A stretch of 64,000 nucleotides of DNA from a virus. Lineage: Duplodnaviria > Caudoviricetes. The stretch covers positions 85,925 to 149,924 of IMG/VR virus record IMGVR_UViG_3300028048_000064, one strand, 5' to 3'. The position numbers and the translations under genes were made by a program. This document shows, one piece after another, positions 5,158 through 53,342 of the stretch; the first letter of the stretch is position 1; every line of letters begins with the position of its first letter. The notes beneath the pieces were generated by a model that saw only the letters and a program-made list of their open reading frames with translations, did not search any database and had not been told where the DNA came from.

Positions 5158-5175
5158 CCAACTCCTTATTTTTTC

Positions 5176-36453: not shown

Positions 36454-36544
36454 TTTATAGTAGATATTAAGAGCCACTATATTTCAAATAATAGTGGCAT
36501 TTTTTTTATTAACAATTTTGTTTAATAAAAAAAAAAATAATATT

Positions 36545-38077: not shown

Positions 38078-38468
38078 AAAAACTTGATACTTTTTGAAAA
38101 CTACTCTATATTTATTTTTAAAATTAACCAAATAAAAATGCAGAAATCTTACATCAGCGCATCAGCAAGCAGACAATGGCTTCAGGGAACCACAACAAGT
38201 TGTTCTCCGATTAATAGTGCGTTGTACGATAATTTTGTGCCAGCATTTGAACATGGTTTAGATTATGATAAAATTGAAAAGGGTATAAAGCAGCGAAAAA
38301 AGAAAATATTAAATGTAGCCGCATAGAAACATTCCGATTTAAAACTCAATATATTTTCCCCAAAGCTGTGATGAAGACCCTAAAAAAGTAAAAATCACGG
38401 CTTTTTTATATTATAATAAGGTGTATTCCTTAAAAAACATTAAATGGGATAAAAAAGTTGAGAAAATA

Positions 38469-38500
38469 TTTGGATATTTCAAAATTAGTTAGTACCTTTG
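38469..38500 (+). promoter_or_regulatory. Bacteroidota-type promoter heading the tRNA/ncRNA island
   Basis: TTTG-N20-TACCTTTG. Confidence 0.75.
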
Positions 38501-38803
38501 CATCGCAATTCAGAAATAATACTTCTGATAAAGCGAAAAACGGAACAATGAGGCAGAAATACCGAATGTAAGTTTCCAAAAAGAGTTCTTTGACATATTG
38601 GGACAACAAAATAAAGCAAAAAAATCAATGCGGAGAGGATTGGTGAAAAACCACATTCATTTTTGTCTATAAGGTGACGAATTGGGGTCAGGTAGTCAGT
38701 AATTACAAGCCCACCTTACGGGATGAGCCTATAAACAAACAAAATGAATTAGTTCAGTAAATATAAGATAGAAATATCTAACAGAATTCCAAATTGGTGA
38801 AAT

Positions 38804-38873
38804 GCGTCTTTGGTGTAATGGTTGCATATCTGATTTCCAATCAGAAGGACAGGTTCAATTCCTGAAGACTGCT
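38804..38873 (+). tRNA. tRNA-Gly(TCC), acceptor stem bulged (possibly degenerate)
   Basis: TCTGA-TTTCCAA-TCAGA anticodon arm; CAGG-TTCAATT-CCTG T arm. Confidence 0.65.
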
Positions 38874-38878
38874 CTCTT

Positions 38879-39332
38879 TTGCATATCATAGGTAGTTTCT
38901 TCAAAATTCGGTGGAAATCCTTCCCTTCAAACCTGCAATTTATAATGTGTGGCTTAAGTATGGCGGAGGAACCACAACACTAATCAATAATGTGCAAGGA
39001 TAATACCGAGTTAAATTGAGATAATGACCTCCTTAATTGGACTGGGAAAGTTAAAAGCTTTTTATCTTATAGTACCTAAGTTGAAATTTATATAGTAGAA
39101 AAGCGGAGCACGTGTGAATCGGAGGTAACCAGTTCTAGTAGAAGCACTTCATCGTGTGGGCTGGGCATAAATGAGGAGATACTACTATGTAACTTGCAAG
39201 AATTTCAATAAGGTAATTTCAGACTACAACAAACAAAGAATAGAGGAATAGCAATTTGCTATAAACTCCACTGTCAACTGACAGGAAGTAGGCTTTATTG
39301 TACAAACCACTTTGTTTGGCTATGATATGCAA
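38879..39332 (+). ncRNA. Group-I-intron-derived structured RNA, no exons
   Basis: 13-bp closing helix TTGCATATCATAG/CTATGATATGCAA; P4-P6-like core shared with 44681-45030. Confidence 0.5.
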
Positions 39333-39348
39333 TCTTTAGAAAATATAT

Positions 39349-39638
39349 AGAACAAGTACAGACCACTGAGTAGGAACTGGGGAAGTGATAGGTAAATGCT
39401 AGCTTCATATTTATCATGTAGACGGACTCAAAGCAGTACCGACAGCCCAGTGAAAGGTGTTGGTTAGGATAAGGAGTTATCCAATACGTGAAGAGCAGCG
39501 TATTTCGTGAGAAGCCATAAGCAGGAACACAACAAATGCCGTAAAACAGCGCAAGTGCCTAATAGCGGGTTTCCTGATTAAATCTGAATAGATGATAAAA
39601 GGTTGCAAAAGTCTGTACCTCGTAAATTTACTTGTTCT
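39349..39638 (+). ncRNA. Unknown ~290-nt structured RNA
   Basis: Closing helices AGAACAAGTA/TACTTGTTCT and GTACAGAC/GTCTGTAC; GC-enriched, no credible ORF. Confidence 0.45.
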
Positions 39639-39645
39639 TTTGAAT

Positions 39646-39717
39646 GCTTGGATAGCTCAGAGGCAGAGCATCGCACTGTTAATGCGAGGGTCGGGATATC
39701 GTAATTCTCTCCAAGCG
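39646..39717 (+). tRNA. tRNA-Asn(GTT), atypical T loop
   Basis: TCGCA-CTGTTAA-TGCGA; acceptor GCTTGGA/TCCAAGC. Confidence 0.8.
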
Positions 39718-39861
39718 CAAAATATTTTTGTATTAAAAACTCCGAGGGTTGGAAGATGGTTGGACTTACGGCAAATGCTAGGAACCTGATGAACCGTAAG
39801 TCAAAGGTGTGTTGTAGGAGTTGCAGGTGAAACGGACAACAGTGTAGGAGTTTTTTTATAT

Positions 39862-40019
39862 GTGGCAGTAACTCAGTTGGTAGAGTGCCGGACTGAATAC
39901 AGAGTAAACTGAAAAATCAAACTTCGTATTGGTTGAGTGGCTGAAACTTTTAAACATTGGTTCGAATCCAATATACGAAGCAAATCCGGTTGTCGGTGGT
40001 TCAAATCCACCCTGCCGCA
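39862..40019 (+). tRNA. tRNA-Phe(GAA) interrupted after position 36 by an 85-nt insert (39898-39982) containing a tRNA-like module
   Basis: Joining 39862-39897 to 39983-40019 gives a canonical cloverleaf with CCGGA-CTGAAAA-TCCGG. Confidence 0.8.
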
Positions 40020-40097
40020 CATTTATATGAAAAAAAAACGTTCGAAACTTGTTTATTCAACTATTTATTAGTATATTTGCAATATATTAGTAAAAAA

Positions 40098-41144
40098 ATG
40101 AAAATGATTGATATTACAAGCGACGAAAACAAGAGAGAAATTTACAAATTATTTGATTCTTTTAATAAAAAAGAAGACATATACAATTATTTTGGAATAA
40201 GTCATAATAGCTATGGTGTTAAGTATGTTAATGCTATTGCATTAGAGATTAATTTTGATTTAAATATTTATCATAAAAGACGTTTTCCGGAAAGATTTTG
40301 TTTAAATTGTGGAAAAAAATTAAAAAAAGGACAAAAGAAATTTTGTGGCCATTCTTGTTCAGCCTCATATAATAATGCTACAAGTGCAAAAGTTGTTAAT
40401 AAGAAGAAAAAACAAGTAAAAAGTCGGGTAAACAAACAAAATAAATGTAAAGTATGTGGAAAAATAGATTGTTTACATACAGGCGTTTGTAATCATCATT
40501 CTTTAAATTGGTTTGATAATCTTATATATTTCGGTTTTGATAAAACGAAGTTAGGAACTGATGGCGTTTTTAATGAATATGAAAATGTAAAAAAGAAAAT
40601 TTCAGATGAATATAAAAATGGTTTGTCTGTATCTGCAATCAAAGAAAAATATAATTATCAGGGTTCAACTGAACGTCTTGTTCATGTTATGAAAAACATG
40701 GGAATTAATTTACGTTGTTTATCTGATGCTTTGCGTAAAGCCATTAGCGAAAAACGTTGTAAATTGCCAGAAGTTATGAAACAATTTAATTATGGGTGGC
40801 ATAATACATGGGATGGATACAAAGTTTTTTATCGCAGTTCATATGAATATGATTTATGCAAATATTTTGATGACAGAAAAATACACTATGAAATGGAAAA
40901 TTTAGTAATTGAGTATTTTGACACCATTTTAAATAAAAAGCGTTATGCGTTACCAGATTTTTATATTGAAAAAGAGAATAAAATTATAGAAGTTAAATCA
41001 AGAGTGACATTTGTTAAACAGAATATGATAGATAAAATGAAACGTTATATAGAGTTAGGGTATGATGTTTTATTAAATTATGAGCATAAAATGTATACCT
41101 TTGATGAAATGCTTAAAATTGAAGAATATAAGTATAAGATTTAA
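40098..41144 (+). CDS. Free-standing homing-type endonuclease, Zn fingers + C-terminal PD-(D/E)XK domain
   Basis: CLNCG..FCGHSC; YRSSYE...LPDFYI...IIEVKS; upstream ORF-track extension overlaps tRNA-Phe, so ATG 40098 is preferred. Confidence 0.75.
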   Translation: MKMIDITSDENKREIYKLFDSFNKKEDIYNYFGISHNSYGVKYVNAIALEINFDLNIYHKRRFPERFCLNCGKKLKKGQKKFCGHSCSASYNNATSAKVVNKKKKQVKSRVNKQNKCKVCGKIDCLHTGVCNHHSLNWFDNLIYFGFDKTKLGTDGVFNEYENVKKKISDEYKNGLSVSAIKEKYNYQGSTERLVHVMKNMGINLRCLSDALRKAISEKRCKLPEVMKQFNYGWHNTWDGYKVFYRSSYEYDLCKYFDDRKIHYEMENLVIEYFDTILNKKRYALPDFYIEKENKIIEVKSRVTFVKQNMIDKMKRYIELGYDVLLNYEHKMYTFDEMLKIEEYKYKI

Positions 41145-41151
41145 ATAATTT

Positions 41152-41350
41152 GGGAGGTTATTCCGTAAGTGGTAGCGGGGCTGACTGTATACAGAGTAAA
41201 CTGAAAATCAAATTTTAGTTTGGCTGAGTGGTTGAAAGCTAAGGCACTAAGTGCTGAGTGAATTTACACTCACATTCGCCGGTTCGAATCCGACAACTAA
41301 AACAAATCAGCTGCTTAACGGCTCGGGTGGTTCGACTCCATCACCTCCCA
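41152..41350 (+). tRNA. tRNA-Tyr(GTA) interrupted after the anticodon by a 115-nt insert (41190-41304) containing a tRNA-like module
   Basis: Joined exons give GCTGA-CTGTAAA-TCAGC, long V arm, GGTGG-TTCGACT-CCATC, acceptor GGGAGGT/ACCTCCC. Confidence 0.8.
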
Positions 41351-41378
41351 CATAATTTTTCATAACTAATGTTTCTGA

Positions 41379-41675
41379 TTGAATATGTTACAGAAAATTA
41401 AAGAAAAATATAAACGATACAAAAGGTTAAAAGGACTTAGAACATATCGTAAGTTAAGAAACACTTTTGATACTGAATATGGAAAATTCCTTGCTTATAT
41501 GTATTATGTCGGTGGTGAAGGAAAATTAGAAGACTTATATAAGTTATTTAATCCTGAAATAATTAGACGTGCTTGGTTTGCCGGATATTTTAACGTCTAT
41601 GATAAAAATTTAGGGTGGAAAGACCATCTGTACAATACAGATGTATATAAAAAATATGATAATGGAAAAAAATAA
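41379..41675 (+). CDS. Hypothetical protein
   Basis: ~97-aa ORF within the tRNA island. Confidence 0.5.
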   Translation: MNMLQKIKEKYKRYKRLKGLRTYRKLRNTFDTEYGKFLAYMYYVGGEGKLEDLYKLFNPEIIRRAWFAGYFNVYDKNLGWKDHLYNTDVYKKYDNGKK

Positions 41676-41908
41676 AATTCAGACCCGATGTTTTGCTGTG
41701 TCAGAGTAAATAAACAGTAGGTGGGATATGGTATGTCACCTTGATAGAAGAAACAGAGAGAAACTGTGCTAATATCAGAATAAACCATTAATACTAGTTA
41801 AGGGTAATGAGGTTTTGTAGGTAAGGAAACCGCCGCACTAAGTTTGGAAACAATAAATAAGAACTAAGTGAAATGGTAAGTTGGTTTATGGATTTCCAAC
41901 GTAAATTT

Positions 41909-41981
41909 AGCCCATTCATCTAGCGGCCTAGGATACATGCCTCTCACGCATGTCACAGCAGTTCAAATCTGCTATGGGTTA
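41909..41981 (+). tRNA. tRNA-Glu(CTC)
   Basis: CATGC-CTCTCAC-GCATG; full cloverleaf. Confidence 0.85.
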
Positions 41982-41992
41982 CAAATTATTTT

Positions 41993-42069
41993 GGGGGCGT
42001 AGTTCAGTTGGCTAGAACATCTGCTTTGCAAGCAGGGGGTCGTGGGTTCAAGTCCCACCGTCTCCACCA
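41993..42069 (+). tRNA. tRNA-Ala(TGC)
   Basis: TCTGC-TTTGCAA-GCAGG; encoded CCA. Confidence 0.92.
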
Positions 42070-42092
42070 ACTTGATTAACAAATGGTTATAC

Positions 42093-42166
42093 AGATGCTT
42101 AGTTCAGTTGATTAGAATATCGGTCTCCAAAATCGAGGGTCGGAGGTTTGAGTCCTTCAGCATCTG
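42093..42166 (+). tRNA. tRNA-Trp(CCA)
   Basis: TCGGT-CTCCAAA-ATCGA. Confidence 0.85.
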
Positions 42167-42172
42167 CAAAAA

Positions 42173-42245
42173 CGGGATATGAGGTTTAATGGTAGCCTGC
42201 GTGCTTTGGGAGCATGTCGAGTCAGTTCGAGTCTGGCTATCCCGA
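42173..42245 (+). tRNA. tRNA-Pro(TGG)
   Basis: CGTGC-TTTGGGA-GCATG. Confidence 0.85.
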
Positions 42246-42252
42246 CAAATAT

Positions 42253-42325
42253 GGTCGGTTCGACAAGTTGGTTAAGTCGTCGCCCTTTCAAGGCGGAGTC
42301 ACGGGTTCGAGTCCCGTACCGACTA
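42253..42325 (+). tRNA. tRNA-Glu(TTC)
   Basis: TCGCC-CTTTCAA-GGCGG. Confidence 0.9.
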
Positions 42326-42336
42326 CTTTCATTTTC

Positions 42337-42408
42337 GCCTCCTTGGGTGAGTGGCCGAGCCACCGGTCTGCAAAACCGGGTACCCCTGTTCGAGTCAGGG
42401 AGGAGGCT
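42337..42408 (+). tRNA. tRNA-Cys(GCA)
   Basis: CCGGT-CTGCAAA-ACCGG; U discriminator. Confidence 0.9.
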
Positions 42409-42423
42409 CATTAAATTATATTT

Positions 42424-42495
42424 GCCGGTGAAGCACAATGGTTGTGCAACTGATTTGTAATCAGTAGGCTGTGGGTTCGACCCCCATCACCGGCT
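42424..42495 (+). tRNA. tRNA-Thr(TGT)
   Basis: ACTGA-TTTGTAA-TCAGT. Confidence 0.88.
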
Positions 42496-42503
42496 CAAAG
42501 AAT

Positions 42504-42588
42504 GGCTTCATGGGGGAATTGGTAGACCCGGCAGACTTAAAATCTTCTGGCCAGTATGGCCGTCCGGGTTCGAGTCCCGGTGAAGCTA
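42504..42588 (+). tRNA. tRNA-Leu(TAA)
   Basis: AGA-CTTAAAA-TCT; long V arm. Confidence 0.85.
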
Positions 42589-42620
42589 CTGAATAATGGG
42601 TATTTAGCTCAGTGATAACT

Positions 42621-42694
42621 GTTGGCATAATTCAGTAGGTTAGAATGTCACGCTGATACCGTGAATGTGGGTGGTTCGAGTCCATCTGCCAACA
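42621..42694 (+). tRNA. tRNA-Ile(GAT)
   Basis: TCACG-CTGATAC-CGTGA. Confidence 0.85.
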
Positions 42695-42702
42695 CTTTTT
42701 AT

Positions 42703-42777
42703 AGTGCGTTAGTTCAGTAGGTTTAGAATGCCACACTGTCACTGTGGAGGTCGCCGGTTCGAATCCGGTACGCACTG
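42703..42777 (+). tRNA. tRNA-Asp(GTC)
   Basis: CCACA-CTGTCAC-TGTGG. Confidence 0.9.
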
Positions 42778-42796
42778 CTTATAATATTTAAATTTT

Positions 42797-43546
42797 ATGG
42801 AATATAATGTAGATGATATTAAAAAGTCAAAACCAAATCAAAGTTTTGAATTTATTTGTAAAAATTGTGGCTGTTCATTTTATCGTACAAAACGTGACAT
42901 TTCTAAAAATAAATATGAACTTCCAATGTTTTGTAGTTGTAAATGCAGAGGTGAATGGAAAAGTAAAAATCGTACCGTAAATGTTAAATGCAAATATTGT
43001 GGAAAAGAATTTAAAATTTTACTCAGTGATTATAATAGAAGCAAAACAAAACATTTTTTCTGTTGCCAATCTCATTCGGCATCGTATACTAACAGATATA
43101 GAAATAACGATAAAAAAATGAAAGATGTAGTATGGAAAGGTGGTAAACATAAAAAAGGATATAATGCTTGCCCTCGCTGTGGTAAACTAAAATCTTATAC
43201 CGCTGAATTATGCAGAAAATGTTGCATTGAGTTGAAACATGAAAAAATAAAATTAAAGACCCTTGGCTATTATATAGACGGACATAAATATTTGACTATT
43301 AAATGTAGTGAAATAAGAAAGGACGCTAGAAGAACAATTGAAAACAGTAATAAATTAAAACATTGCTGTTTTTGTGGAAACAATCATGAATTTGATGAGA
43401 TTCTTGACGTACATCATATAAAAGGCATATTAAAATTTCCTAGTTCTGCCACTATTGGTGAAATTAATAATATAGATAATTTAATGTGGGTTTGCCCTAG
43501 CCATCATAAGATGTTAGAGAAAGGTTTAATTACACTGACTCCGTAG
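42797..43546 (+). CDS. HNH homing endonuclease with multiple Zn fingers
   Basis: CKNCG, CKYCG, DVHHIKG...NNIDNLMWVCPSHH; stop codon lies inside tRNA-Lys. Confidence 0.85.
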   Translation: MEYNVDDIKKSKPNQSFEFICKNCGCSFYRTKRDISKNKYELPMFCSCKCRGEWKSKNRTVNVKCKYCGKEFKILLSDYNRSKTKHFFCCQSHSASYTNRYRNNDKKMKDVVWKGGKHKKGYNACPRCGKLKSYTAELCRKCCIELKHEKIKLKTLGYYIDGHKYLTIKCSEIRKDARRTIENSNKLKHCCFCGNNHEFDEILDVHHIKGILKFPSSATIGEINNIDNLMWVCPSHHKMLEKGLITLTP

Positions 43547-43609
43547 CTCAGTTGGTAGAGCACAACACTTTTAATGTTGGGGTCCCGGGTCCGAGTCCCG
43601 GCGGGGTCA
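43537..43609 (+). tRNA. tRNA-Lys(TTT)
   Basis: CAACA-CTTTTAA-TGTTG. Confidence 0.88.
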
Positions 43610-43621
43610 CTGAATTAATAT

Positions 43622-43694
43622 GGGACAGTTGGCCGAGTGGTTAGGTGCATGTTTGTGGCACATGTTTACGTTGGTTCGAACCCAACACTGCCCC
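43622..43694 (+). tRNA. tRNA-His(GTG)
   Basis: CATGT-TTGTGGC-ACATG; G-1:C73. Confidence 0.82.
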
Positions 43695-43701
43695 CATAAT
43701 T

Positions 43702-43774
43702 GCACCATTGGTGTTAGTGATTAGCATATCAGACTTCCAATCTGAAGGGGACAGTTTGAATCTGTTATGGTGCT
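43702..43774 (+). tRNA. tRNA-Gly(TCC)
   Basis: TCAGA-CTTCCAA-TCTGA. Confidence 0.82.
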
Positions 43775-43781
43775 CTAATTT

Positions 43782-43853
43782 GCAGTATTCGTATAGTGGT
43801 TATTACACCTGCTTGCCATGCAGGAGACGAAGTTTCGATTACTTTATACTGCT
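43782..43853 (+). tRNA. tRNA-Gly(GCC)
   Basis: CCTGC-TTGCCAT-GCAGG. Confidence 0.82.
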
Positions 43854-43974
43854 CTAATAATAGAAATTGACGATAGAGGTCTCAATGTTAAGTCCGGTAA
43901 CGGATAAAAGAAGTCTTGTTGGTTAAGGAAACCAGATTCCCTTGAAAGTACGTCCGTCAATTTTTTATATGAAC

Positions 43975-44158
43975 CTTGCAAGAAAACCCCATCCTTCAGG
44001 GTAGGGATGAATTGCAAAAAAATTCTTCGTAGGGGCATCTACGAATTGGCAAGCGGGAGTGAGACCATTGAGACTACGTGTCAAAGGGCATCCCACGCAA
44101 GCGTTGTTACACGAAGTGGCCAAGAATCCCTCAATCTTTAGGTGGGGGAGTATGTCAA
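43975..44158 (+). mobile_element. Non-autonomous IS200/IS605-type miniature element (left-end hairpin + omegaRNA-like right end), copy 1
   Basis: LE CCCCATCC-TTCA-GGGTAGGG; RE GAATCCC..TTTAGG..GGGGAGTATGTCAA; paralogous to 49837-50019. Confidence 0.75.
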
Positions 44159-44645
44159 GAACTAACAGAAGGAAACACCCGTATGTACTAGCGGGAGAAG
44201 TTACCGTAGGCAACCAATCTGAGGTTGAGATACATATCCGATTTGTATTGTAATTGGAGGTGGTTATTCATTAGTATGGATGTGTAGGATTAGAGTTGTA
44301 CGGGATAGTGGAATGTATGTTTTTAAGTATAAGTTGAAATTAATTCAGCAATGTTGATGCAATGAAGATTATCATTGAAATCTGAGTTTATGCAGCGGTG
44401 GCCATGTAATTGCATCAGTAGTGAGTCAAACGACACTATGGTCAAATTGTTGAATTTACTTGCAAGGATTTCGACTTTTTTTGATATGGTTTTACTCTGA
44501 CTTCGAGTACTGGCAATTCGGCAGAAAGCATTTATATGTTGTTAGATGCTATAGAGTGATAATGGTGGGAGTCCATGATGTCGTTTTGTGTTATCTACTG
44601 CTTGGAGAACTCTAATTAAAACTATTTTTGCTTTATTATATAAAT

Positions 44646-45038
44646 GAAAACATAAGCCTAATTGGTAAGGCAGTGGTCTTGAATTTAATTCGAGTGCTAT
44701 GGCGAGAAATCCCATAGTAGAATCTCCCTAAAACGGCGGAAGTCCTCAGAAGTGGGCATAAGTTGTGTGAGATATGTACATTCACACCACCTAAACAATA
44801 ATGGTGGAGGATAATACCGTGCTAAATTGAGAGACTATACCTTCAAATAACTTTGATGTTCATAAGGTTAAGTTTGGGTAAACAAGTTAGCCTCATAAAA
44901 GTGTCGAGAGTATATAGGAGATACCTAAGTTGAAATTTATAATGAAACCTAGAAGTGCGAACATCCAAGAAAGGTCAGTAGCTCGGTTGATTTATATCTC
45001 ATGAGAATTTTAATATGGTAAAAATAAACTGTCTTCCA
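44646..45038 (+). pseudogene. tRNA (Ser-like body) pseudogene with truncated group I intron after U34
   Basis: 5' exon GAAAACATAAGCCTAATTGGTAAGGCAGTGGTCTT; P1 CTTGAA/TTCGAG with U-G; P3 ATCTCC/GGAGAT; P4; R-like GTCGAGAGTATA; only acceptor 3' strand TGTCTTC remains. Confidence 0.6.
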
Positions 45039-45046
45039 TTTATAAT

Positions 45047-45130
45047 GGCGGGTTGCCGGAACGGTAACGGGCCTGACTTGAAATCAGAGGCATCCTTCGG
45101 GGTGAGTGGGTTCGACTCCTACACCCGCCG
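45047..45130 (+). tRNA. tRNA-Ser(TGA)
   Basis: CTGA-CTTGAAA-TCAG; long V arm with TTCG loop. Confidence 0.85.
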
Positions 45131-45220
45131 CACATACTTTATTTTTTCTAAAAAAAAAACGTTCGAAATTTTGTTTTTCCGCTATTTATTAGTATATTTA
45201 CAATATACATAAATAACAAA

Positions 45221-46117
45221 ATGAGAAAACGTAATATTATAGACATTAGTACAGAGGAAAAGAAAAAAGAAGTTTACGATATTTTAAATTCGTTATCAAG
45301 TAAAAATCAAATTCATGAGTATTTTGGTATATCAGATAATAAATGTGGTTCTGATTATGTTAAACAAATTGCTTCAAAAATTGGATTTGATTTAAACATT
45401 TATAAAGAAAGAAAAAAGAAACCTATTAAATATTGTAAGCAATGTGGTAATGAAATCACAAGTAAAACAGCAAATGAATTTTGTTGTAGTTCTTGTGCCG
45501 CAACGTACAATAATGAACACCGTTCAAAAGATGTTTATGAAAATATTGGTAACAAATTAAGAAAACATCCTAAAAAGGTATGTAAAGAAAAATATTGCGA
45601 AATATGTGGTAAAAAATTAGAAGGCCATCAGCATAAATATTGCTCTGAGAGTTGTAGGAATCGAAACAAATATTTAACGCAAGGACAAGAATTTATTTGT
45701 CAAGAATGTGGTAAAATATTTAAAAGTAGAAATCCAAATAGGAAGTTTTGTTCAAATGAATGTTGTGCTAAACATAGAGGTAAAGAAACTATTGACAAGT
45801 GGATTAAAGGCGAATATTTTTTAGACCCAAATTCAAAATTACCTAAATATATAAGATTGTTTCTTTATGAAAGAGCACATTATAAATGTGAAGAATGTGG
45901 CTTTGAAGGTTATAATAAGAGAACAAATAATACTATTTTACAAATTCATCATATAGACGGAAATTGTGGTAATAACTGTAGAGAAAATCTGAAAGTTTTA
46001 TGCCCTAATTGCCACGCTATGACTGAAAATTATATGGCACTCAATAAAGGAAAAAGTGCAAGGTCTAAAAGATATAAAGGAGAGAGCAACCAACAAGGAG
46101 TTGGGTCTGACTGCTAA
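45221..46117 (+). CDS. HNH homing endonuclease with Zn-finger repeats
   Basis: CxxCG..FCS..C repeats; LQIHHIDGN..NN...NLKVLCPNCH; 3' end overlaps tRNA-Ser(GCT). Confidence 0.88.
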   Translation: MRKRNIIDISTEEKKKEVYDILNSLSSKNQIHEYFGISDNKCGSDYVKQIASKIGFDLNIYKERKKKPIKYCKQCGNEITSKTANEFCCSSCAATYNNEHRSKDVYENIGNKLRKHPKKVCKEKYCEICGKKLEGHQHKYCSESCRNRNKYLTQGQEFICQECGKIFKSRNPNRKFCSNECCAKHRGKETIDKWIKGEYFLDPNSKLPKYIRLFLYERAHYKCEECGFEGYNKRTNNTILQIHHIDGNCGNNCRENLKVLCPNCHAMTENYMALNKGKSARSKRYKGESNQQGVGSDC

Positions 46118-46164
46118 TCAGAACGTGCTATTTGTGGCATAGGTATCGTAAACCTGCCTCTCCG
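46079..46164 (+). tRNA. tRNA-Ser(GCT), atypical D/T loops
   Basis: TCTGA-CTGCTAA-TCAGA; acceptor GGAGAG/CTCTCC, G discriminator. Confidence 0.7.
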
Positions 46165-46197
46165 CAGAGTTTAACATTAAAGCAGAAAGGAAAAATT

Positions 46198-46866
46198 ATG
46201 GAAAACAGTAAATACCCAAGAACGTTTCACGTCCCGTTCTCAGAAGGGTTACAGAATGATGACAGACGTGTTGATGACGATTGGTTTTCCTATTTGAAAG
46301 GAAAGGAACTGATTCTTAGCGAAAAATTAGACGGTGAAAACAGTTCTATATCTCGTTATGGTGTATTTGCTCGTTCTCATGCAGCACCTACAAGGAATCC
46401 TTGGTCAATAAACCTATGGGGAAATGACGGCCTTTATTGGAGAATTAAGGATTTGATTGGTGAAGATGAAATGATTTACGGTGAGAACTTATATGGTGTT
46501 CATTCGATTGAATATAATAGGTTGAAAGAATATTTCCATATGTTTGCCGTAAGGGATGAAGAGAAATGGTATTCTTGGGATGATGTTTCAGAAATGGCAC
46601 AGATTCTTGATTTGCCGACTGTTCCTGTATTGGAAAGACGTTCATTTGACACAGAAGATGAATTAAAGGAACACGTATTGTATTGGATGACGCAAGGCAG
46701 TAGGTATGGTGATACTATTGAGGGTGTTGTTATCCGTAATGTTGATAGTTATCCGATTGATGAGTTTTGTCATAATGTCGTGAAGTATGTACGTAAGAAT
46801 CATGTGCAAACTGACCAATTTTGGGCAAAAAATTGGAGAAAAGCGAAAATAACAGAATATTATTAA
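46198..46866 (+). CDS. ATP-dependent RNA ligase (Rnl2-like nucleotidyltransferase)
   Basis: KYPRTFH, motif I SEKLDGEN, III IYGEN, IV EGVVIR, V KYVR. Confidence 0.85.
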   Translation: MENSKYPRTFHVPFSEGLQNDDRRVDDDWFSYLKGKELILSEKLDGENSSISRYGVFARSHAAPTRNPWSINLWGNDGLYWRIKDLIGEDEMIYGENLYGVHSIEYNRLKEYFHMFAVRDEEKWYSWDDVSEMAQILDLPTVPVLERRSFDTEDELKEHVLYWMTQGSRYGDTIEGVVIRNVDSYPIDEFCHNVVKYVRKNHVQTDQFWAKNWRKAKITEYY

Positions 46867-46976
46867 TAACTTTTAACAAAAAATATTTGTAGATTCTTTG
46901 CACTGTCAAACGATGACAAAGTGTTCTTTTTATATATTTATATAATAAGAAAGGAGAAATAGAAAACACATCAAAG

Positions 46977-47444
46977 ATGATTATTGGTTCATATAATAGC
47001 ATGAGTTATCTTCAACCAGCAAATAAATGGTTGAAATATATTAACAAGTGGTTTATAAGGTATCAAGAAAAGACAATTGAGCAACAATATGCCGAAGGTA
47101 TAAGACTATTTGACATAAGGCTATTTGTTAACAAATATGGCAAGTTATGCTTTAAATGTCGTTTTGTTGAATATATTATATTCAGTTTATATGGTGTGTT
47201 TAATTTCCTTAATAAACAAGGTGATTGCTACGTAAGATTAACACTTGAAGAAACACTTGTTGATGCCGGTAGTAATAATATAAAGAATGTTGAGGAAAAA
47301 TTCATATGGGCTTGCAAATCATTACCAGAGATTTATCCAAATATTAAATTCTTTGGTGGAAAAAGAGAATTTGATGGAAAATTGCTGTATGAATTTAAAA
47401 ATGAATTGAAAGATTATGAATATAGACTTTTAACGTTTATATAG
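46977..47444 (+). CDS. PI-PLC X-box-like protein, probably catalytically altered
   Basis: GSYNSMSY (usual His replaced by Tyr), QEKTIEQQYAEGIRLFDIR. Confidence 0.6.
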   Translation: MIIGSYNSMSYLQPANKWLKYINKWFIRYQEKTIEQQYAEGIRLFDIRLFVNKYGKLCFKCRFVEYIIFSLYGVFNFLNKQGDCYVRLTLEETLVDAGSNNIKNVEEKFIWACKSLPEIYPNIKFFGGKREFDGKLLYEFKNELKDYEYRLLTFI

Positions 47445-47777
47445 AAAGACAAAAATGGAGAGTAAGGTGGCGCACTCCGCCGGAATAAAACGTCACGCTT
47501 ATAAGTCTGAAATTTTAAATACATATTAGGGTACAGAAATGACCGGGCGTAGATTTCAGTCTAAGTTCGTAGGAGGACTTCGAAATTGTATTTATTCTTC
47601 GAAGAATTTCAGATTTTTAGAAAATAGTTAGGAGATGCACCTAATGACTCAAGCATGCTGATATTTTGTTATGGTGACTTGCAAGATTTCTTAACTATTT
47701 TTGTTTTTGGAAAGTGAAAATAACAGAATTTTATTAGTTTTAAGTTATGGAGGAATTAAAAGACTAAGTAATGGTAT

Positions 47778-47851
47778 TGGGGTGTCGTATAGTCCGGTTA
47801 GTACACATGACTTTGACTCATGTAGCACCAGTTCAAATCTGGTCGCCCCAA
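47778..47851 (+). tRNA. tRNA-Gln(TTG)
   Basis: CATGA-CTTTGAC-TCATG. Confidence 0.88.
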
Positions 47852-47857
47852 CTATTT

Positions 47858-47931
47858 TAGAGATTGGTGTAAAATTGGTAACACGTGACACTCTGGATGT
47901 TAAGTTATCAGTCCGAGTCTGGTATCTCCAA
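47858..47931 (+). tRNA. tRNA-Gln(CTG)
   Basis: TGACA-CTCTGGA-TGTTA; one acceptor mismatch. Confidence 0.72.
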
Positions 47932-47938
47932 CTAATTT

Positions 47939-48022
47939 GGCTTCATGGTGGAATTGGTAGACACGAATGTCTCAAAAGCATTTGTCCGAGAGGATGTAAG
48001 GGTTCAAGTCCCTTTGAAGCCA
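47939..48022 (+). tRNA. tRNA-Leu(CAA)
   Basis: AATGT-CTCAAAA-GCATT; long V arm. Confidence 0.88.
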
Positions 48023-48024
48023 CT

Positions 48025-48149
48025 AAGCAAATAGTCATTTAATGGCAAGAACGGGGCGCATGGAGGAATATTGATGGAAACCATTGATACACAGTTAATG
48101 TGATGTTGCCAATCGGTGATGTTGGGTTCGATTCCTGACCTATTTGTTT
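48025..48149 (+). ncRNA. tRNA-like RNA with anticodon arm replaced by ~65 nt
   Basis: Acceptor-like AAGCAAATAG/CTATTTGTTT, D loop TTTAATGGCAA, T arm GTTGGG-TTCGATT-CCTGAC. Confidence 0.55.
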
Positions 48150-48209
48150 AATTTTAGTATTGAAAAACTGTTAAACTATATTTATATTAATATTTAAAGT
48201 TTAATTGTT

Positions 48210-48542
48210 ATGAGTTCAATATTAGATGAATATAAGAGATACACGGATGACAGTTTACTAACAGAGGAAGAAAAAGCCAAAGTTAGGGAGTTAGTAAATG
48301 ACTATGAGGCCTTAAATATGGATTTATTTATCCGTAAGATTGGTGGAATGGAACGTATTGAGGAAATGAAACGAATTAATGACGTTGCCGATGGCATGTA
48401 TGTTGTTGGCGGCAAGGTTGTGCATAAATCAAGGCCAAATAGTAATGCTTCTATTTCAAATAGACAGGAAGACCTGGATGAGTGGAAAAAAGGCTTCATG
48501 GAAGGTTTTGAGGAAGCATACAAGAGACTGAATATGAGATAA
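48210..48542 (+). CDS. Hypothetical protein
   Basis: 110-aa ORF preceded by TATTTAT. Confidence 0.55.
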   Translation: MSSILDEYKRYTDDSLLTEEEKAKVRELVNDYEALNMDLFIRKIGGMERIEEMKRINDVADGMYVVGGKVVHKSRPNSNASISNRQEDLDEWKKGFMEGFEEAYKRLNMR

Positions 48543-48558
48543 ATAATTTTTTATATAT

Positions 48559-48957
48559 GGGGATAACAGGCATTTGACAGCAAGTATGAAATGGTCTGTA
48601 AGCATGCAGTGTGAAGACTATTACACTTAAATCAATTTGGTCGAACAATTAATTGGCGAAACAACTTACGCTCTCGCTGCCTAATCGAAGTACAGTAGGT
48701 TACTGGCTTAATTCCCTTACAAGGTGAGGGAACGAGACATCACTTAATGAGTTATTTTCTGAGACTTGTTAGTATAGTGGTGCAGGAAAATCAGAAATAG
48801 TTGGTCTATGCCTTGATGGATTGATGAAAATTAAAAGGATAAGAATGCAATTTGGTAGTTCAAGTCGTGTTGCATTATGAAAATCAAAATTGAACTAAGC
48901 ATGTAGAAAATAGATGGTTTCCTTGTTTGGACGAGGTTTCGATTACCTCTATCTCCA
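48559..48957 (+). ncRNA. ssrA: tmRNA
   Basis: 5' GGGGATAACAGGCATTTGAC, 3' GGACGAGGTTTCGATTACCTCTATCTCCA, tag ORF 48655-48684 GETTYALAA*. Confidence 0.93.
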
Positions 48958-48968
48958 CAAATTAGGAT

Positions 48969-49054
48969 GCCGTTGTACCCGAACTGGTATAGGGGACAGT
49001 CTAAGGAACTGTTGCAACGGAAGTTGCGTGAGGGTTCGACTCCCTCCAACGGCA
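48969..49054 (+). tRNA. tRNA-Leu(AAG)
   Basis: ACAGT-CTAAGGA-ACTGT; long V arm; A discriminator. Confidence 0.82.
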
Positions 49055-49064
49055 CAAACATGAT

Positions 49065-49138
49065 GCCCCCATAGCTCAGTTGAATAGAGCACGATACTTC
49101 TAATATCGGGGTCACAGGTTTGAATCCTGTTGGGGGTA
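49065..49138 (+). tRNA. tRNA-Arg(TCT)
   Basis: CGATA-CTTCTAA-TATCG. Confidence 0.9.
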
Positions 49139-49177
49139 CAAAATTTTCTTGAAATTTACAATTTTTAACAAAAAATA

Positions 49178-49209
49178 TTTGGTAGTTTCAAAAATAATTA
49201 GTATCTTTG
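49178..49209 (+). promoter_or_regulatory. Bacteroidota-type promoter heading the Y-RNA-like array
   Basis: TTTG-N20-TATCTTTG. Confidence 0.75.
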
Positions 49210-49269
49210 CAACCGAATTAATGAAGAAAGCGTTCTTTAATATATTTATAATGTAGAAAACAAAAAAAT

Positions 49270-49353
49270 ACGAATAGTGATGTGAGAGTTACTTCGATAC
49301 AATATAATGTGGATATTTTCAATCAAAACTCACTCTCGCTGTTTTTCTTTCGT
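49270..49353 (+). ncRNA. Y-RNA-like unit 1 (stem only, no tRNA module)
   Basis: TAGTGA-TGTGAGA-GTTACTTCGA ... ACTCTCGC..TTTTCTTTCG. Confidence 0.55.
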
Positions 49354-49371
49354 TATTTTTTTAAAATATAA

Positions 49372-49516
49372 GTTGGTAGTGAAGTTAAGGGTTACTTCGA
49401 TTAATTATTGGTTCGAATCCAATAGATTCCGTTTTGGGAATTTTGGCGAAATGGTATACGCGAAACACTTGAAATGTTTTTTAGACAGAAACTCACCCTT
49501 GCTGTGATTCTCCAAT
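49372..49516 (+). ncRNA. Y-RNA-like unit 2, YrlA-type circularly permuted tRNA module
   Basis: Conserved stem encloses T arm (TATTGG-TTCGAAT-CCAATA), loop-closed acceptor (GATTCC/GGAATT), D arm and anticodon-like arm, in that order. Confidence 0.7.
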
Positions 49517-49525
49517 TTTTTATAC

Positions 49526-49665
49526 GGGCGTAAAGTTTAGAAAAAAGAAATTTACTGAAGGTATTTTCTTTGATTTTTCAATAGTGAACTTTACAGTTAC
49601 TTCGAATAGGTTAAAACGTTATCATGTCAAGATAAAGATTCTTGGTTCGACTCCAAGTACGCCCG
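49526..49665 (+). ncRNA. Y-RNA-like unit 3: tRNA-Asp(GTC) with the Y stem inserted (strand-swapped) in its D loop
   Basis: Acceptor GGGCGTA/TACGCCC-G, TTATC-ATGTCAA-GATAA; insert ~49541-49606 carries TAGTGA..GTTACTTCGA. Confidence 0.65.
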
Positions 49666-49670
49666 CAAAC

Positions 49671-49803
49671 AACAAGTAGTGACAGAAGAGTTACTTCGAT
49701 TTTTTAGCTAAGTAGGTTATAGCGCAATTCTGTTAAAATTGATGTCCGAGGTTCGAGTCCTCGAAGAATCTATTTTGTAATACTCTTCTAATTTTCTCTT
49801 GTT
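49671..49803 (+). ncRNA. Y-RNA-like unit 4 enclosing a complete tRNA-Asn(GTT)-like cloverleaf (49698-49771)
   Basis: AACAAG..AGAAGAGT / ACTCTTCT..CTTGTT stem; CAATT-CTGTTAA-AATTG. Confidence 0.7.
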
Positions 49804-49836
49804 TTTCTTTTGAAAGTAGTATATATTTATATACGT

Positions 49837-50019
49837 CTTGCAAGAAAACTCCATCCTTCAGTGTGTGGATGAATTGCAAAAAAAAATTCTTCGTAGGGGC
49901 ATCTACGAATTGGAAAGCGGGTGGAAGACCAGTGAGGCTCCGGCCAAAGGGCATCCCACGAAAGCGTCTAGTACGAAATGTCCAAGAATCCCCTCACTTT
50001 AGGGAGGGGAGTATGTCAA
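49837..50019 (+). mobile_element. Non-autonomous IS200/IS605-type miniature element, copy 2
   Basis: Paralogue of 43975-44158 (shares TTCTTCGTAGGGGCATCTACGAATTGG and GTATGTCAA end). Confidence 0.75.
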
Positions 50020-50028
50020 ATAAGAAAT

Positions 50029-50165
50029 ATGCAGTAGTGACGTGACTGTTACTTCGATAACATTTAGACAAGTGGTTAAGTCGCAATTTTTTGGTAATTG
50101 AGAACGCCGGTTCAATTCCGGCAGTGTTGTAAACAATAGCAAACAGTCACAAATTTTCTCTGTAT
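50029..50165 (+). ncRNA. Y-RNA-like unit 5 enclosing a complete tRNA-Gln(TTG)-like cloverleaf (50058-50130)
   Basis: GTGACTGTT/AACAGTCAC stem; CAATT-TTTTGGT-AATTG; GCCGG-TTCAATT-CCGGC. Confidence 0.7.
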
Positions 50166-50172
50166 TATTTAG

Positions 50173-50337
50173 TGGGCGGTAGTTCAGTGGTAGAACACGA
50201 GTCTCGTCTCTGTAGTTTAATTGGCAGAACACAAATTTTTATGATTTGGACATGAGGTCGATACTCATCGGAGGCACAAAGTTTTAAGAACTTACAAAAT
50301 AATCTCGAAATCCCTGGTTCGAGTCCAGGTCGCCCAA
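50173..50337 (+). tRNA. tRNA-Met(CAT)-like gene interrupted between C34 and A35 by a 93-nt insert (50206-50298) that begins with a full tRNA-like cloverleaf
   Basis: Joined exons give CGAGT-CTC|ATAA-TCTCG; acceptor TGGGCGG/TCGCCCA; T arm CCTGG-TTCGAGT-CCAGG. Confidence 0.7.
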
Positions 50338-50435
50338 CAAAAATATGTTGTCCCAATATATCGTAGGGAGCATGCAATTGTCTATTAATATAGGCTTTTG
50401 CATATTTTATTTTATATATAAAGATTTATTATTAA

Positions 50436-50807
50436 TTGAAAATGAGTGTAAACAGATATGATGAATTATTAAAACAGTTATATGAGAAAGACTTTGTTAA
50501 TTTGAGGTTCACAGTATTCAATTTCATTGAGAATGACGGTTATGTTGCAGAGATTTCCTCTGTTCATGGCAAGAAGTTTGACATTGATGATTTTGAGTTT
50601 ATTGTTTTTGACATTCCGCAGGAGGATAAGAAGGCAATTAAGAATGGAAATGCATTGGTTATTCAGAGATACCAGTCATTTAAGTATTATATTGAAAAGG
50701 AGTGTCAGGAAGTTCCGAATTGCGCTATTTTCATTATGAAAGATTTAGGAATTGTCATTGCAGTTAAGTTAAAATATTATAATCTTGGAAAAATGAATGA
50801 AGCTTAG
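50436..50807 (+). CDS. Hypothetical protein
   Basis: ~121-aa ORF. Confidence 0.55.
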   Translation: MKMSVNRYDELLKQLYEKDFVNLRFTVFNFIENDGYVAEISSVHGKKFDIDDFEFIVFDIPQEDKKAIKNGNALVIQRYQSFKYYIEKECQEVPNCAIFIMKDLGIVIAVKLKYYNLGKMNEA

Positions 50808-50827
50808 TATTTTTTAACGGTATTTCT

Positions 50828-50858
50828 TTTGAAGTATCGTTTTTTTGTAGTATATTTG
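50828..50858 (+). promoter_or_regulatory. Bacteroidota-type promoter
   Basis: TTTG-N19-TATATTTG. Confidence 0.6.
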
Positions 50859-50930
50859 CAAAAAATTAAGGAGACACAAGGGAAAGTGTGTGTGTTTATA
50901 TATATATAACAACATTAATCAAATATATTT

Positions 50931-51152
50931 ATGGCACAATTTTTAGAAAGAACATGTAGATGTATTAATGATTTATCCATTCCGTCTGAGGGTAGAAATT
51001 CAGCATTGGATATATTGAATTTTCATGCGGGCAGGGAATATCAGGTAGATGTTTACCCTTTATTTCTACAGGTATATCAGAATGGTGGATATAATGATTA
51101 TGTTTATTTGGAAGAAAAGGAATTTTTGGAACATTTTGAAATGATTGAATGA
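50931..51152 (+). CDS. Small hypothetical protein
   Basis: 73-aa ORF. Confidence 0.5.
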   Translation: MAQFLERTCRCINDLSIPSEGRNSALDILNFHAGREYQVDVYPLFLQVYQNGGYNDYVYLEEKEFLEHFEMIE

Positions 51153-51173
51153 TAAATTTAAAGTAAAGACTTT

Positions 51174-53342
51174 ATGTTAGATTACGAAGTACTTAAACAA
51201 AAAGAAAAGTTGCTTGACAATGCTTGTTCGGTATTGAAGAAGGAGTTTGTTGGACTTAATGAGATTATTGATGGAATAATCTACAATGTGAAACCGTGGT
51301 TTCTGTTTCCCGAATTACAGAATAGACCACATGTTGTATGTCTTTGGGGTTTGACGGGAACGGGAAAAACGAGTCTGGTTAAAAGGCTTTGCCAATTGCT
51401 TGAAATTGAGAAGGATATGGTATATTTCAATTTCGCTGAGATTGGTGAATGTTCATCGTGGGATATTGAGAGTAAGATTGAGGAAGAGTTATCAAGTGAG
51501 CGTTCAAATCGTGTATTTGTATATGATGAATTTCAATATGCTGCGACTTTGGATGCCACTGGTGCTGAGAAGGACAGAAAGAGTGGTTTGAAGCCATTCT
51601 GGGAGTTGCTTGATGATGGTAAGTTGCATCGTCGTGACTCATTTTGGCGTGTACGTACCTTGTATAAGGTTGTAGGTTACATGCAGAAGATTAATGCATT
51701 CTGTCCTATCAAGTTGGAGCATGGCGTTTGGGTTAATTCACAGGAATGTATGTCATATTTCACACAGTATGACATCGCAATGTTTTCACAGGTGTTTAAC
51801 TTTGACACAAATAATGGAAAAACAGTTCATGGTTTACCTCAGAATGGACCGGTTGCCAATGAAGACTATGATGATGATGATTGTTGCCGTGATGAAGTAG
51901 CAACACAGTCATCTGCTTCTGGCCAATTGGCAAGTATTATTGGTGATAAGAAGGGTGATGGAAGCCGTCATTTCTTCTTGAAGGACCATTATCTTGATAC
52001 GTTGATTGAACTTTATGATAAGACAAAATCAACCGTCAGTGACAAATTGACAATCTTTCATAAGATTAGGGAATACAGTTTTGAACAATTGTTAGGTCTT
52101 ATAACAGAGGTATTTGACAGTGCAACAAAGGGATATGACTTGAATTTCAGTGACAGTATCATATTTGTCATCGGCAATTTGGACGAGGCATATACCATTG
52201 CATTCAATGCAGACCCGGATATGAGTCCTGACCAATTCAATAAGGTAACAAAGAAAATTACCATTGTTGATGTTAAAGAGGCATTGCAGAAACGTTTCAG
52301 AAATGAACAGATTGCACGTCTTGGAAATATCCATATGATTTATCCTGCATTCTCAAGCAAGTCATTCATGGAAATCATTAACCTTTCACTTGCCAAATAT
52401 GCCAAGGATGTTAAAGAATTGACTGGATATGATGTTATATTCAAGGACAGCATTGTTAAATTCATTTATAATGAATCTGTGTTCCCTACACATGGTACAA
52501 GACCTATATATTCATCAATCCATGAGATTGTAAAGGCAAAACTACCACTTGTTATGCGTGAGGTGTATGACAAGGAAGATGACATCAAGAAGATTGAATT
52601 TTCTCATAAGGGGCGTAAGACAATTATTGAAATTTACAGTAATTCAAATGAACTTATACAAACCCTTAAATATACAGAGAAGACACGCCTTGATAAACTA
52701 AGGGAAAGTGAATGTGATGAGGAACAGGCAATTGTTGCAGTCCATGAAAGTGGCCACTTTGCAGTCTATGCTGCATTGATGCATAAAATCCCGGAGAAAC
52801 TATGCAGTAAGACTGCTTCAAGTAATAATGGCGGTTTCTTAATGCAAGACTTTGATGATACACATAAACTACATTCCGTTGATATGCTGCTTAATAGGAT
52901 TAAGATTAGTCTTGGCGGTTATTGCGCAGAGAAAATGGTCTTCGGCGATGATTACATGTCTGTCGGTGCATCAAGTGATTTACGTAGTGCAACACGTACA
53001 GCAAGCCAACTTGTACGTGATTATGGCTATTGTGCGCCATATGTGACCACATATTCAGAAAATGCTGAAATCAACGATTTCGGACATATGATAAGACCGG
53101 AATCCCGTGAAGAGGCTAATGCGGAAATTATCGATATCATTAAGATTTGTGAGAATGATGTGAATAATATTCTGAAATCAGACTGTTGGAGAACATTGCT
53201 TAAAGACTCAAGCGAATATCTTTCAGTTAATTCAAATATGCCAAAGAAGAAGATGCAGGAACTATATGATAAGGTAGCATCTACTTGTAAGGCAGATAAA
53301 AAGGGTAGTGAGTATTACAGAAATAAGATTAAGGAAATCTGA
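51174..53342 (+). CDS. Soluble AAA+ ATPase fused to M41 (FtsH-type) metallopeptidase
   Basis: Walker A GLTGTGKT, Walker B VYDE, AVHESGH, LGGYCAE, GASSDL; no TM segment. Confidence 0.8.
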   Translation: MLDYEVLKQKEKLLDNACSVLKKEFVGLNEIIDGIIYNVKPWFLFPELQNRPHVVCLWGLTGTGKTSLVKRLCQLLEIEKDMVYFNFAEIGECSSWDIESKIEEELSSERSNRVFVYDEFQYAATLDATGAEKDRKSGLKPFWELLDDGKLHRRDSFWRVRTLYKVVGYMQKINAFCPIKLEHGVWVNSQECMSYFTQYDIAMFSQVFNFDTNNGKTVHGLPQNGPVANEDYDDDDCCRDEVATQSSASGQLASIIGDKKGDGSRHFFLKDHYLDTLIELYDKTKSTVSDKLTIFHKIREYSFEQLLGLITEVFDSATKGYDLNFSDSIIFVIGNLDEAYTIAFNADPDMSPDQFNKVTKKITIVDVKEALQKRFRNEQIARLGNIHMIYPAFSSKSFMEIINLSLAKYAKDVKELTGYDVIFKDSIVKFIYNESVFPTHGTRPIYSSIHEIVKAKLPLVMREVYDKEDDIKKIEFSHKGRKTIIEIYSNSNELIQTLKYTEKTRLDKLRESECDEEQAIVAVHESGHFAVYAALMHKIPEKLCSKTASSNNGGFLMQDFDDTHKLHSVDMLLNRIKISLGGYCAEKMVFGDDYMSVGASSDLRSATRTASQLVRDYGYCAPYVTTYSENAEINDFGHMIRPESREEANAEIIDIIKICENDVNNILKSDCWRTLLKDSSEYLSVNSNMPKKKMQELYDKVASTCKADKKGSEYYRNKIKEI

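Follow-up and report, generated by a model that had tools for sequence, protein, structure and literature searches.

A tRNA-Met(CAT) gene of a large phage interrupted within its anticodon by a tRNA-shaped insert of reversed layout

Introduction

To our knowledge, bacterial and phage tRNA genes have no introns besides self-splicing group I introns, of which the small ones in Jug phages have a reported average length of ~206 nt. The closest described system to the locus considered here is that of the Lak megaphages, huge phages infecting Bacteroidota, whose tRNA genes carry 'enigmatic' introns in their anticodon loops, the mechanism being left unexplained (Devoto 2019, PMC6784885, Fig. 4, Table S6). 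As described there, these introns are about 80–140 nt in length, near-identical across samples and present or absent among relatives, and within the intron of the Lak Thr gene Rfam calls a tRNA (PMC6784885). Full-text literature searches for a mechanism acting on tRNA-shaped inserts returned the Devoto 2019 description only and no mechanistic follow-up.

The present analysis concerns a 64-kb stretch of phage DNA (the window; all coordinates refer to it unless another sequence is named), which forms the 3' end of a 150-kb IMG/VR virus record and contains a tRNA-Met(CAT) gene with an insert of this general kind. As in the Lak introns described in PMC6784885, the insert interrupts the anticodon loop of an otherwise canonical huge-phage tRNA gene and has a tRNA-like module within it. 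It differs from the Lak form given there in that the tRNA mimic comes first, next to the 5' exon, the trailer behind it contains a different hairpin, and the point of insertion is between positions 34 and 35; a tRNA-first, trailer-last layout does not occur among the Lak cases of Table S6 that were compared (PMC6784885). Measured against that source, tRNA-shaped phage introns are not new as a general phenomenon, and the tRNA-first, trailer-last layout is a new variant (PMC6784885). The Met element may well belong to the tRNA-shaped introns of large-phage tRNA genes, in a layout opposite to that of the common leader-first form.

Results

The tRNA array and its surroundings

The record has a CheckV completeness of 41 %, corresponding to an uncultured jumbo phage of ~365 kb. 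All 26 of the tRNA-model matches in its 150 kb fall in the 38.8–50.3 kb interval of the window, a locus shared with a tmRNA, an RNA ligase, HNH endonucleases and a reverse transcriptase. Once the nested genes for Phe, Tyr and Met are counted in, the array serves 19 of the 20 amino acids, and neither ARAGORN nor Rfam reveals a further copy of a Phe, Tyr or Met tRNA in the 150-kb record. The absence of a second CAT-anticodon tRNA, first remarked for the window, thus extends to the whole record; the genome beyond the 41 % covered may still hold a second Met tRNA or further RNA-repair enzymes. In almost all tRNAs of the array (38804–50338) the encoded N73-C74 runs on into an A- or T-rich stretch, CCA being encoded in tRNA-Ala only, and a CCA-adding enzyme was not found in the incomplete 150-kb fragment. 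Two Rfam tRNA matches of ~50 bits each, at 39646–39717 and 43702–43774, are missed by ARAGORN; one is of Asn(GTT) type with an aberrant T-loop region, and its orthologue in the relative G001 has an insert, and the other is a second gene of Gly(TCC) type.

The tmRNA (48559–48958, mid-array; Rfam 114 bits) encodes the tag peptide GETTYALAA, and because a phage tmRNA carries this tag the host is taken to be bacterial. A reverse transcriptase gene (36494–37747; RVT_1) lies just upstream of the array and gives weak, sub-cut-off matches to group II maturase, Drt2 and retron reverse transcriptase models. The phage also encodes a TROVE/Ro60 protein (about 28689–29471), and an array of Y-RNA-like stems into which tRNA modules are built (49270–50165) lies directly upstream of the nested Met gene; one of these modules is named Gln(ttg) by ARAGORN in the window and Pro(tgg) in relatives. 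Searches of GenBank phages gave no cultured relative, at either the DNA or the protein level.

Structure of the nested tRNA-Met element

When introns are allowed, ARAGORN reports a 73-nt tRNA with a 93-nt insert at 50173–50338 on the plus strand. The insert (50206–50298) splits the anticodon between bases 34 and 35. The 5' exon (50173–50205) supplies the 5' strand of the acceptor stem, the D arm, the 5' strand of the anticodon stem and the loop bases C32, U33 and C34, and the 3' exon (50299–50337) supplies A35, U36, A37 and A38, the 3' strand of the anticodon stem, the variable loop, the T arm, the 3' strand of the acceptor stem and A73. In the outer tRNA the acceptor stem is of 7 bp, U8 and A73 are in place, the D loop is AGTGGTA with its GG and the T loop is TTCGAGT; in the ARAGORN structure the cloverleaf shows the RF00005-type features U8, G18G19, U33, T-loop and discriminator. 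Removal of the insert restores a 7-nt anticodon loop in an otherwise canonical tRNA, the U31·U39 mismatch of whose anticodon stem is present as had been noted earlier.

Without introns, ARAGORN instead reports 50206–50277 as a tRNA with anticodon tta, and Rfam scores 50206–50276 at 38.4 bits against a cut-off of 29 bits; at the nested locus the inner match is the only one that Rfam gives, the outer tRNA not being aligned. This inner mimic runs from G+1 to A73 (50276) plus C74 and has acceptor, D, 'anticodon' and T arms: the acceptor is GTCTCTG/CGGAGGC with G1-C72 and two G·U pairs, the acceptor and T stems stack as 7+5 bp, the D loop contains GG, the 'anticodon' stem is CAAAT/ATTTG, the T loop contains UC, and A73 is in place. 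Its 3' end, A73-C74-AAA, resembles that of genuine tRNAs of the array. The T loop, GTCGATA, had been called atypical, and is not disqualifying because one tRNA-His found by IMG/VR word search carries the same loop; IMG/VR word searches with the D arm and the T arm found unrelated tRNAs only. The 22 nt 3' of the inner A73 contain the hairpin AAGTT-TTAAG-AACTT, and beyond C74 the rest of the trailer (50278–50298) consists of a spacer, this hairpin (AAGTT/AACTT, 50279–50293) and a tail ACAAA that reaches the 3' splice site. In minimum-energy folds the trailer hairpin persists, together with the acceptor and T arms of the outer tRNA and the acceptor and anticodon stems of the inner unit. The nested geometry proposed in the preliminary description is therefore borne out, by ARAGORN with introns for the outer tRNA and by ARAGORN and Rfam for the inner unit, and the inner stems, T loop and trailer hairpin are as it gave them.

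Identity of the anticodon and position of the junction

ARAGORN names the outer tRNA Thr(CGT), with the junction 2 nt later, a designation that we rejected on synteny and on matches of the CAT arm to natural tRNAs. Uninterrupted tRNA(CAT) genes on at least a dozen phage contigs, and others in bacteria, for example Dysgonomonas (Bacteroidota) and a Cryomorphaceae MAG, contain the spliced arm CGAGT-CTCATAA-TCTCG as an identical 17-mer, U·U mismatch included. The syntenic site, defined by the same Y-RNA-like unit on one side and the same downstream 120-aa gene on the other, holds a tRNA-Met(CAT) with the loop CTCATAA in G001, L017, L018, L027, L028 and L039. Both observations agree with the Met(CAT) assignment made at the outset, and a CAT reading with its junction at the inner +1 is better supported than Thr(CGT). 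Given a CAT anticodon, the junctions are fixed: the insert is 50206–50298, and the 5' junction is unique and equals position +1 of the inner unit, the coincidence to which attention had first been drawn. The outer tRNA would be an elongator Met tRNA, or possibly Ile2.

Conservation among four lineages

The nested element is present in four lineages, namely the window, L019/L020, L038 and L042, relatives having been found via contigs that encode homologues of the downstream gene and by one metagenome word search. Among these lineages the element is 95–99 % identical and the 104 nt upstream of it are 85–91 % identical, and the neighbouring downstream gene has 73 % nucleotide identity between the window and L019. 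In the four-way alignment no exon column varies (0/75; the 5' exon is identical in 4/4 lineages), as against 9/95 columns of the insert; by our own estimate from these column counts, the chance of all nine falling in the insert is ~(95/170)^9, or ~0.005. At the inner acceptor pair 6:67, U·G is replaced by A-U with U·U as an intermediate, which constitutes a double compensatory change, and one-sided stem changes are seen at inner pair 2:71 (U·G to U-A) and at a pair of the inner T stem (A-U to G·U). The variable insert columns outside stems, two indels among them, are all in loops: one is in the inner D loop; in the inner 'anticodon loop' two lineages have the 7-nt sequence TTTTATG and the remaining two an 8-nt one, TTTCTATT or TTTCTATA; and the loop of the trailer hairpin is TTAAG, TTTAAG or TTTAAA, its stem and both flanks being invariant. 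The covariation count for these four sequences was not above the shuffle control (260 of 500), and the evidence therefore lies in the location of the substitutions and not in a pair statistic.

Because the exons are invariant, all changes lie in the insert and the inner loop is of 7–8 nt, we conclude that the outer tRNA is under strong purifying selection and that the inner unit is a structural mimic, on which constraint acts for shape and not for decoding. In the trailer, we further conclude, the unpaired parts are constrained in sequence. The high conservation of the module as a whole could stem in part from recent transfer between lineages. It had been allowed that relatives might reveal the insert as a recent random duplication; this explanation is rejected, as neither the window nor G001 contains a paralogue of the inner unit, and this unit has diverged among the lineages with its stems kept. 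For the window, the search was made by blastn-short with the inner-plus-trailer sequence, of which no second copy was found.

The same alignment bears on what the inner unit might do. The ARAGORN label tRNA-Stop(tta) would fit a working ochre suppressor tRNA(UUA) for which the outer halves provide only a processing frame, an idea that we find scarcely credible and that the variation of the inner loop excludes. Because its loop differs in length between lineages (7 nt in two, 8 nt in the other two), no anticodon is fixed and position 37 is U in place of a purine, the inner unit was rejected as a genuine decoding tRNA; moreover, TAA is the main stop codon of the window, terminating 33 of 49 long plus-strand ORFs, and long ORFs under the standard code make up 72 % of it.

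It is also conceivable that the transcript is never spliced, the two nested cloverleaves forming one stable RNA with two elbows whose outer part never decodes. The element does follow directly on an array of tRNA modules embedded in Y-RNA-like stems, the phage encodes a TROVE/Ro60 protein, and there is no evident mechanism for removal of the trailer. Against such a composite RNA, the exons rebuild an anticodon arm identical to that of natural decoding tRNA(CAT) genes, an ordinary tRNA-Met stands at the site in relatives, and variation, which the inner loop admits, is absent from the bases of the outer anticodon loop. We therefore think a composite RNA unlikely, and a role for it, for example as a decoy for tRNA-targeting defences or as a partner of the phage Ro60 protein and the Y-RNA-like array, is to be regarded with the same reserve.

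Alleles at the syntenic site

Three alleles occur at the Met site among relatives: a plain gene, a gene with the tRNA-first insert and a gene with a leader-first insert. The last is represented by L030:805-965, a different tRNA-Met(CAT) whose insert is composed of an ATGTAG-AGTAAA-CTAC hairpin, an A-rich spacer and a tRNA mimic. The intron-less Met(CAT) allele (L003:1656-1742 in G001, L017:2868-2954, L027:2867-2953 and L039:442-530) is 87–89 nt in length and has a variable-region segment of ~20 extra nucleotides (GGACATTTGTGTGCATTGTGT), which is odd for a Met tRNA. A word search with the 5' exon found no intron-less copy of the window's own outer tRNA.

The patchy distribution, with three alleles at one site, is what might be expected if selfish DNA, in the form of a tRNA-plus-trailer segment, had inserted into the anticodon loop and killed the gene, the loss being tolerated as phage tRNAs are dispensable. 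A reverse transcriptase and HNH endonucleases are encoded in or beside the array, and a start at the +1 of a tRNA is also expected of an insert copied back, as this one possibly was, from RNA trimmed by RNase P. Nevertheless, we hold this explanation to be improbable, since no exon change has occurred in four lineages in which the insert and the flanks have diverged, the substitutions in the insert preserve structure, and neither the window nor G001 has a donor paralogue. The conservation of the exons and the match of the spliced arm to natural tRNAs are the strongest arguments both against a killed gene and against a composite RNA. A miniature element of IS200/IS605 type was considered because a TnpB (IS605 OrfB) gene lies within the tRNA array of a more distant relative (L022:972-2192), and was judged unlikely: tRNA signatures are present in the D and T loops of the insert, and a common target tetranucleotide is absent.

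Leader-first inserts in other tRNA genes

In our survey of the array with ARAGORN and Rfam, two further genes of the window, both on the plus strand, were found to have inserts: tRNA-Phe(GAA) at 39862–40020, with an insert of 85 nt and an Rfam tRNA score of 52.4 bits with the insert included, and tRNA-Tyr(GTA) at 41152–41350, with its mimic at 41214–41302. In these the order is a leader with an (A)TACAG-AGTAAA-CTG hairpin, an A-rich spacer and, last, a tRNA mimic that adjoins the 3' exon with its 3' end (stem, C, A); the leader motif occurs in the window at 39898 and 41190 only. These inserts share the architecture of the Lak Tyr, Phe, Thr and Gly inserts of Table S6 (PMC6784885), and features common to both sets, as that source gives them, are a leader starting (A)TACAG, a purine-rich hairpin loop of the form ..TAAA, an A-rich spacer and a mimic ending in CA (PMC6784885).

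In the Met insert this order is reversed, so that it is not of the leader-first type, and its polarity is, as stated in the preliminary description, opposite to that of the Phe and Tyr inserts. The description of it as a mirror image holds for architecture and fails for common descent, as no homology in sequence links the Met insert to those of Phe and Tyr, nor has the element any sequence similarity to the leader-first family at large.

Leader-first inserts occur in at least five tRNA genes of G001, Asn, Thr, Lys, Tyr and Arg (L001:2224-2380, 3871-4023, 5005-5159 and about 2927-3098; L008:2121-2273), and Arg inserts of this form also occur in L024–L026. Across the leader-first inserts, the leader stems covary (CAG/CTG, ACAG/CTGT, GTAG/CTAC, AATGG/CCATT) around a conserved AGTAAA loop. 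The Phe gene is interrupted in the window and intact in G001, the reverse is true of Asn, and insert occupancy also differs between the two for Lys, Thr and Arg, which matches the behaviour reported for Lak phages (PMC6784885). The tRNA-Arg(TCT) genes L024:3074-3233 and L025:3740-3898 share nearly the same insert, the T stem of whose inner unit has undergone the compensatory change GGTGG/CCACC to GGCGG/CCGCC; their exons differ at several positions and are clearly diverged. On these comparisons the leader-first inserts appear to behave like a mobile intron. The notion of a fixed distance between the non-tRNA splice site and the outer anticodon stem was dropped, leader-first inserts being found at both 35/36 and 36/37.

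Discussion

If the outer tRNA is used, the insert has to be removed from the RNA. We hypothesize, with middling confidence, that the tRNA with the CAU anticodon is functional, that the 93 nt at 34/35, a tRNA mimic flush with the 5' exon followed by a hairpin trailer, constitute an intron, and that this intron is removed via the cuts of tRNA processing and ligation. Host RNase P would recognize the inner mimic and cut 5' of G+1, so that the 5' exon would end in C34 with a 3'-OH; the mimic would be released at A73/C74 by RNase Z or a similar activity, in the way expected of the other array tRNAs; an additional cut 5' of A35 (...ACAAA|AUAA) would take off the hairpin trailer and leave a 5' phosphate; and the ATP-dependent RNA ligase of the phage, which needs a 3'-OH and a 5'-P, would seal the anticodon loop. 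The layout suggests RNase P for one of the two splicing cuts because a mimic with G1-C72, a 7+5 stack, the D/T elbow bases and A73 begins exactly at the 5' splice site, and because its A73-C74-AAA end is like those of the array tRNAs the mimic should enter the same 3'-end processing. The invariant flanks of the trailer hairpin suggest sequence-specific recognition at the 3' site, and we know of no enzyme that would remove the 22-nt trailer or cut precisely 5' of A35. In leader-first inserts the situation would be mirrored, in that the 3' site is the 3' end of the mimic and the cut away from the mimic would fall at the 5' site, before AUACA.

A candidate for the sealing enzyme is encoded inside the tRNA array itself, at 46132–46866 on the plus strand: an ATP-dependent RNA ligase of the Rnl2-like nucleotidyltransferase family (Pfam PF09414, E 7e-28; PHROG RNA ligase), with a homologue in G001 that is 95 % identical. 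It would fit the proposed route because RNase P and RNase Z leave the ends that are its substrate, 3'-OH and 5'-P. This family is usually read as repairing nuclease-damaged tRNAs. The ligase sequence gave no match to solved structures. RtcB was not found in the incomplete 150-kb fragment, and a search of that fragment for Rnl1 gave no match, nor did the control of the same search match anything.

Several known systems resemble parts of this scheme. Group I introns also occupy anticodon-loop sites, have a patchy, mobile-looking distribution and have homing endonuclease genes nearby; in contrast to their length of about 200 nt or more, the Met insert has 93 nt, it has no P3–P9 core, and its 5' exon ends in C and not in U. 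No Rfam intron match was obtained for 38000–52000 at E up to 1, so that no group I core was detected, and the base at −1 is C. One might instead envisage a small self-splicing or self-cleaving RNA of a new class for which the tRNA-like fold serves as a scaffold; the sequence-invariant single-stranded segments that flank the trailer hairpin, and the hairpin with the conserved AGTAAA loop in the related leader-first inserts, would speak for it. We rate this as quite improbable: no ribozyme family of Rfam was matched in the same interval at the same threshold, the insert is less than half the average length of the small Jug-phage group I introns, and next to a 5' exon ending in C there is no recognizable catalytic core.

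The nearest working analogy to the splicing route favoured here is that of the archaeal and eukaryal bulge-helix-bulge introns, which are removed from anticodon loops in a protein-dependent manner followed by ligation. The Met insert differs from them in its position (34/35 as opposed to 37/38) and in its bacterial host, and the ends proposed for it, 3'-OH and 5'-P, differ from the cyclic phosphate and 5'-OH of bulge-helix-bulge splicing; by inspection, no complementary 4-mer that could form such a motif (two 3-nt bulges around a 4-bp helix) lies at the Met junctions (50198–50215 and 50288–50308). In the plant mitochondrial t-elements, the mascRNA of MALAT1 and the tRNA-like domain of bacterial YrlA, embedded mimics draw tRNA end-processing enzymes to a defined bond, whereas the cut in the Met element would double as a splice site in the anticodon of another tRNA and would require religation. 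Breaks in the anticodon loop are repaired in phage T4 by Pnkp and Rnl1, a case of a phage RNA ligase sealing a tRNA; here, unlike in T4, the ligase is of the PF09414 (Rnl2-like) family and not Rnl1.

Taking the two forms of insert together, we tentatively propose, as somewhat doubtful in its full extent, that a tRNA mimic within an intron recruits end-trimming enzymes into the anticodon of another tRNA in large phages of Bacteroidota, a route not shown for any tRNA: the 5' site of the Met element would be cut by RNase P, the 3' site of the leader-first form by RNase Z, and an Rnl-type ligase would reseal the 3'-OH/5'-P nick. The tRNA-shaped inserts of huge phages have gone unexplained since 2019, and the Met element adds to them a second, mirrored architecture. 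The only splice site of the Met element that coincides with a tRNA end would be the site for RNase P, and this makes the idea of processing enzymes serving as splicing enzymes testable on one short transcript. Exons that are frozen, beside a mimic that drifts with its stems kept, are the strongest indirect evidence presented here that the interrupted tRNA is used. Genes of this kind are missed or mislabelled by standard tRNA finders, in the present case as a stop suppressor and as Thr, which can mislead inference of the genetic code. If the proposal is true, there would be a protein-dependent pathway of tRNA splicing in the bacterial world, the mirrored Met element would be a natural experiment indicating that either enzyme is able to define a splice site, and the phage could gate the supply of particular tRNAs.
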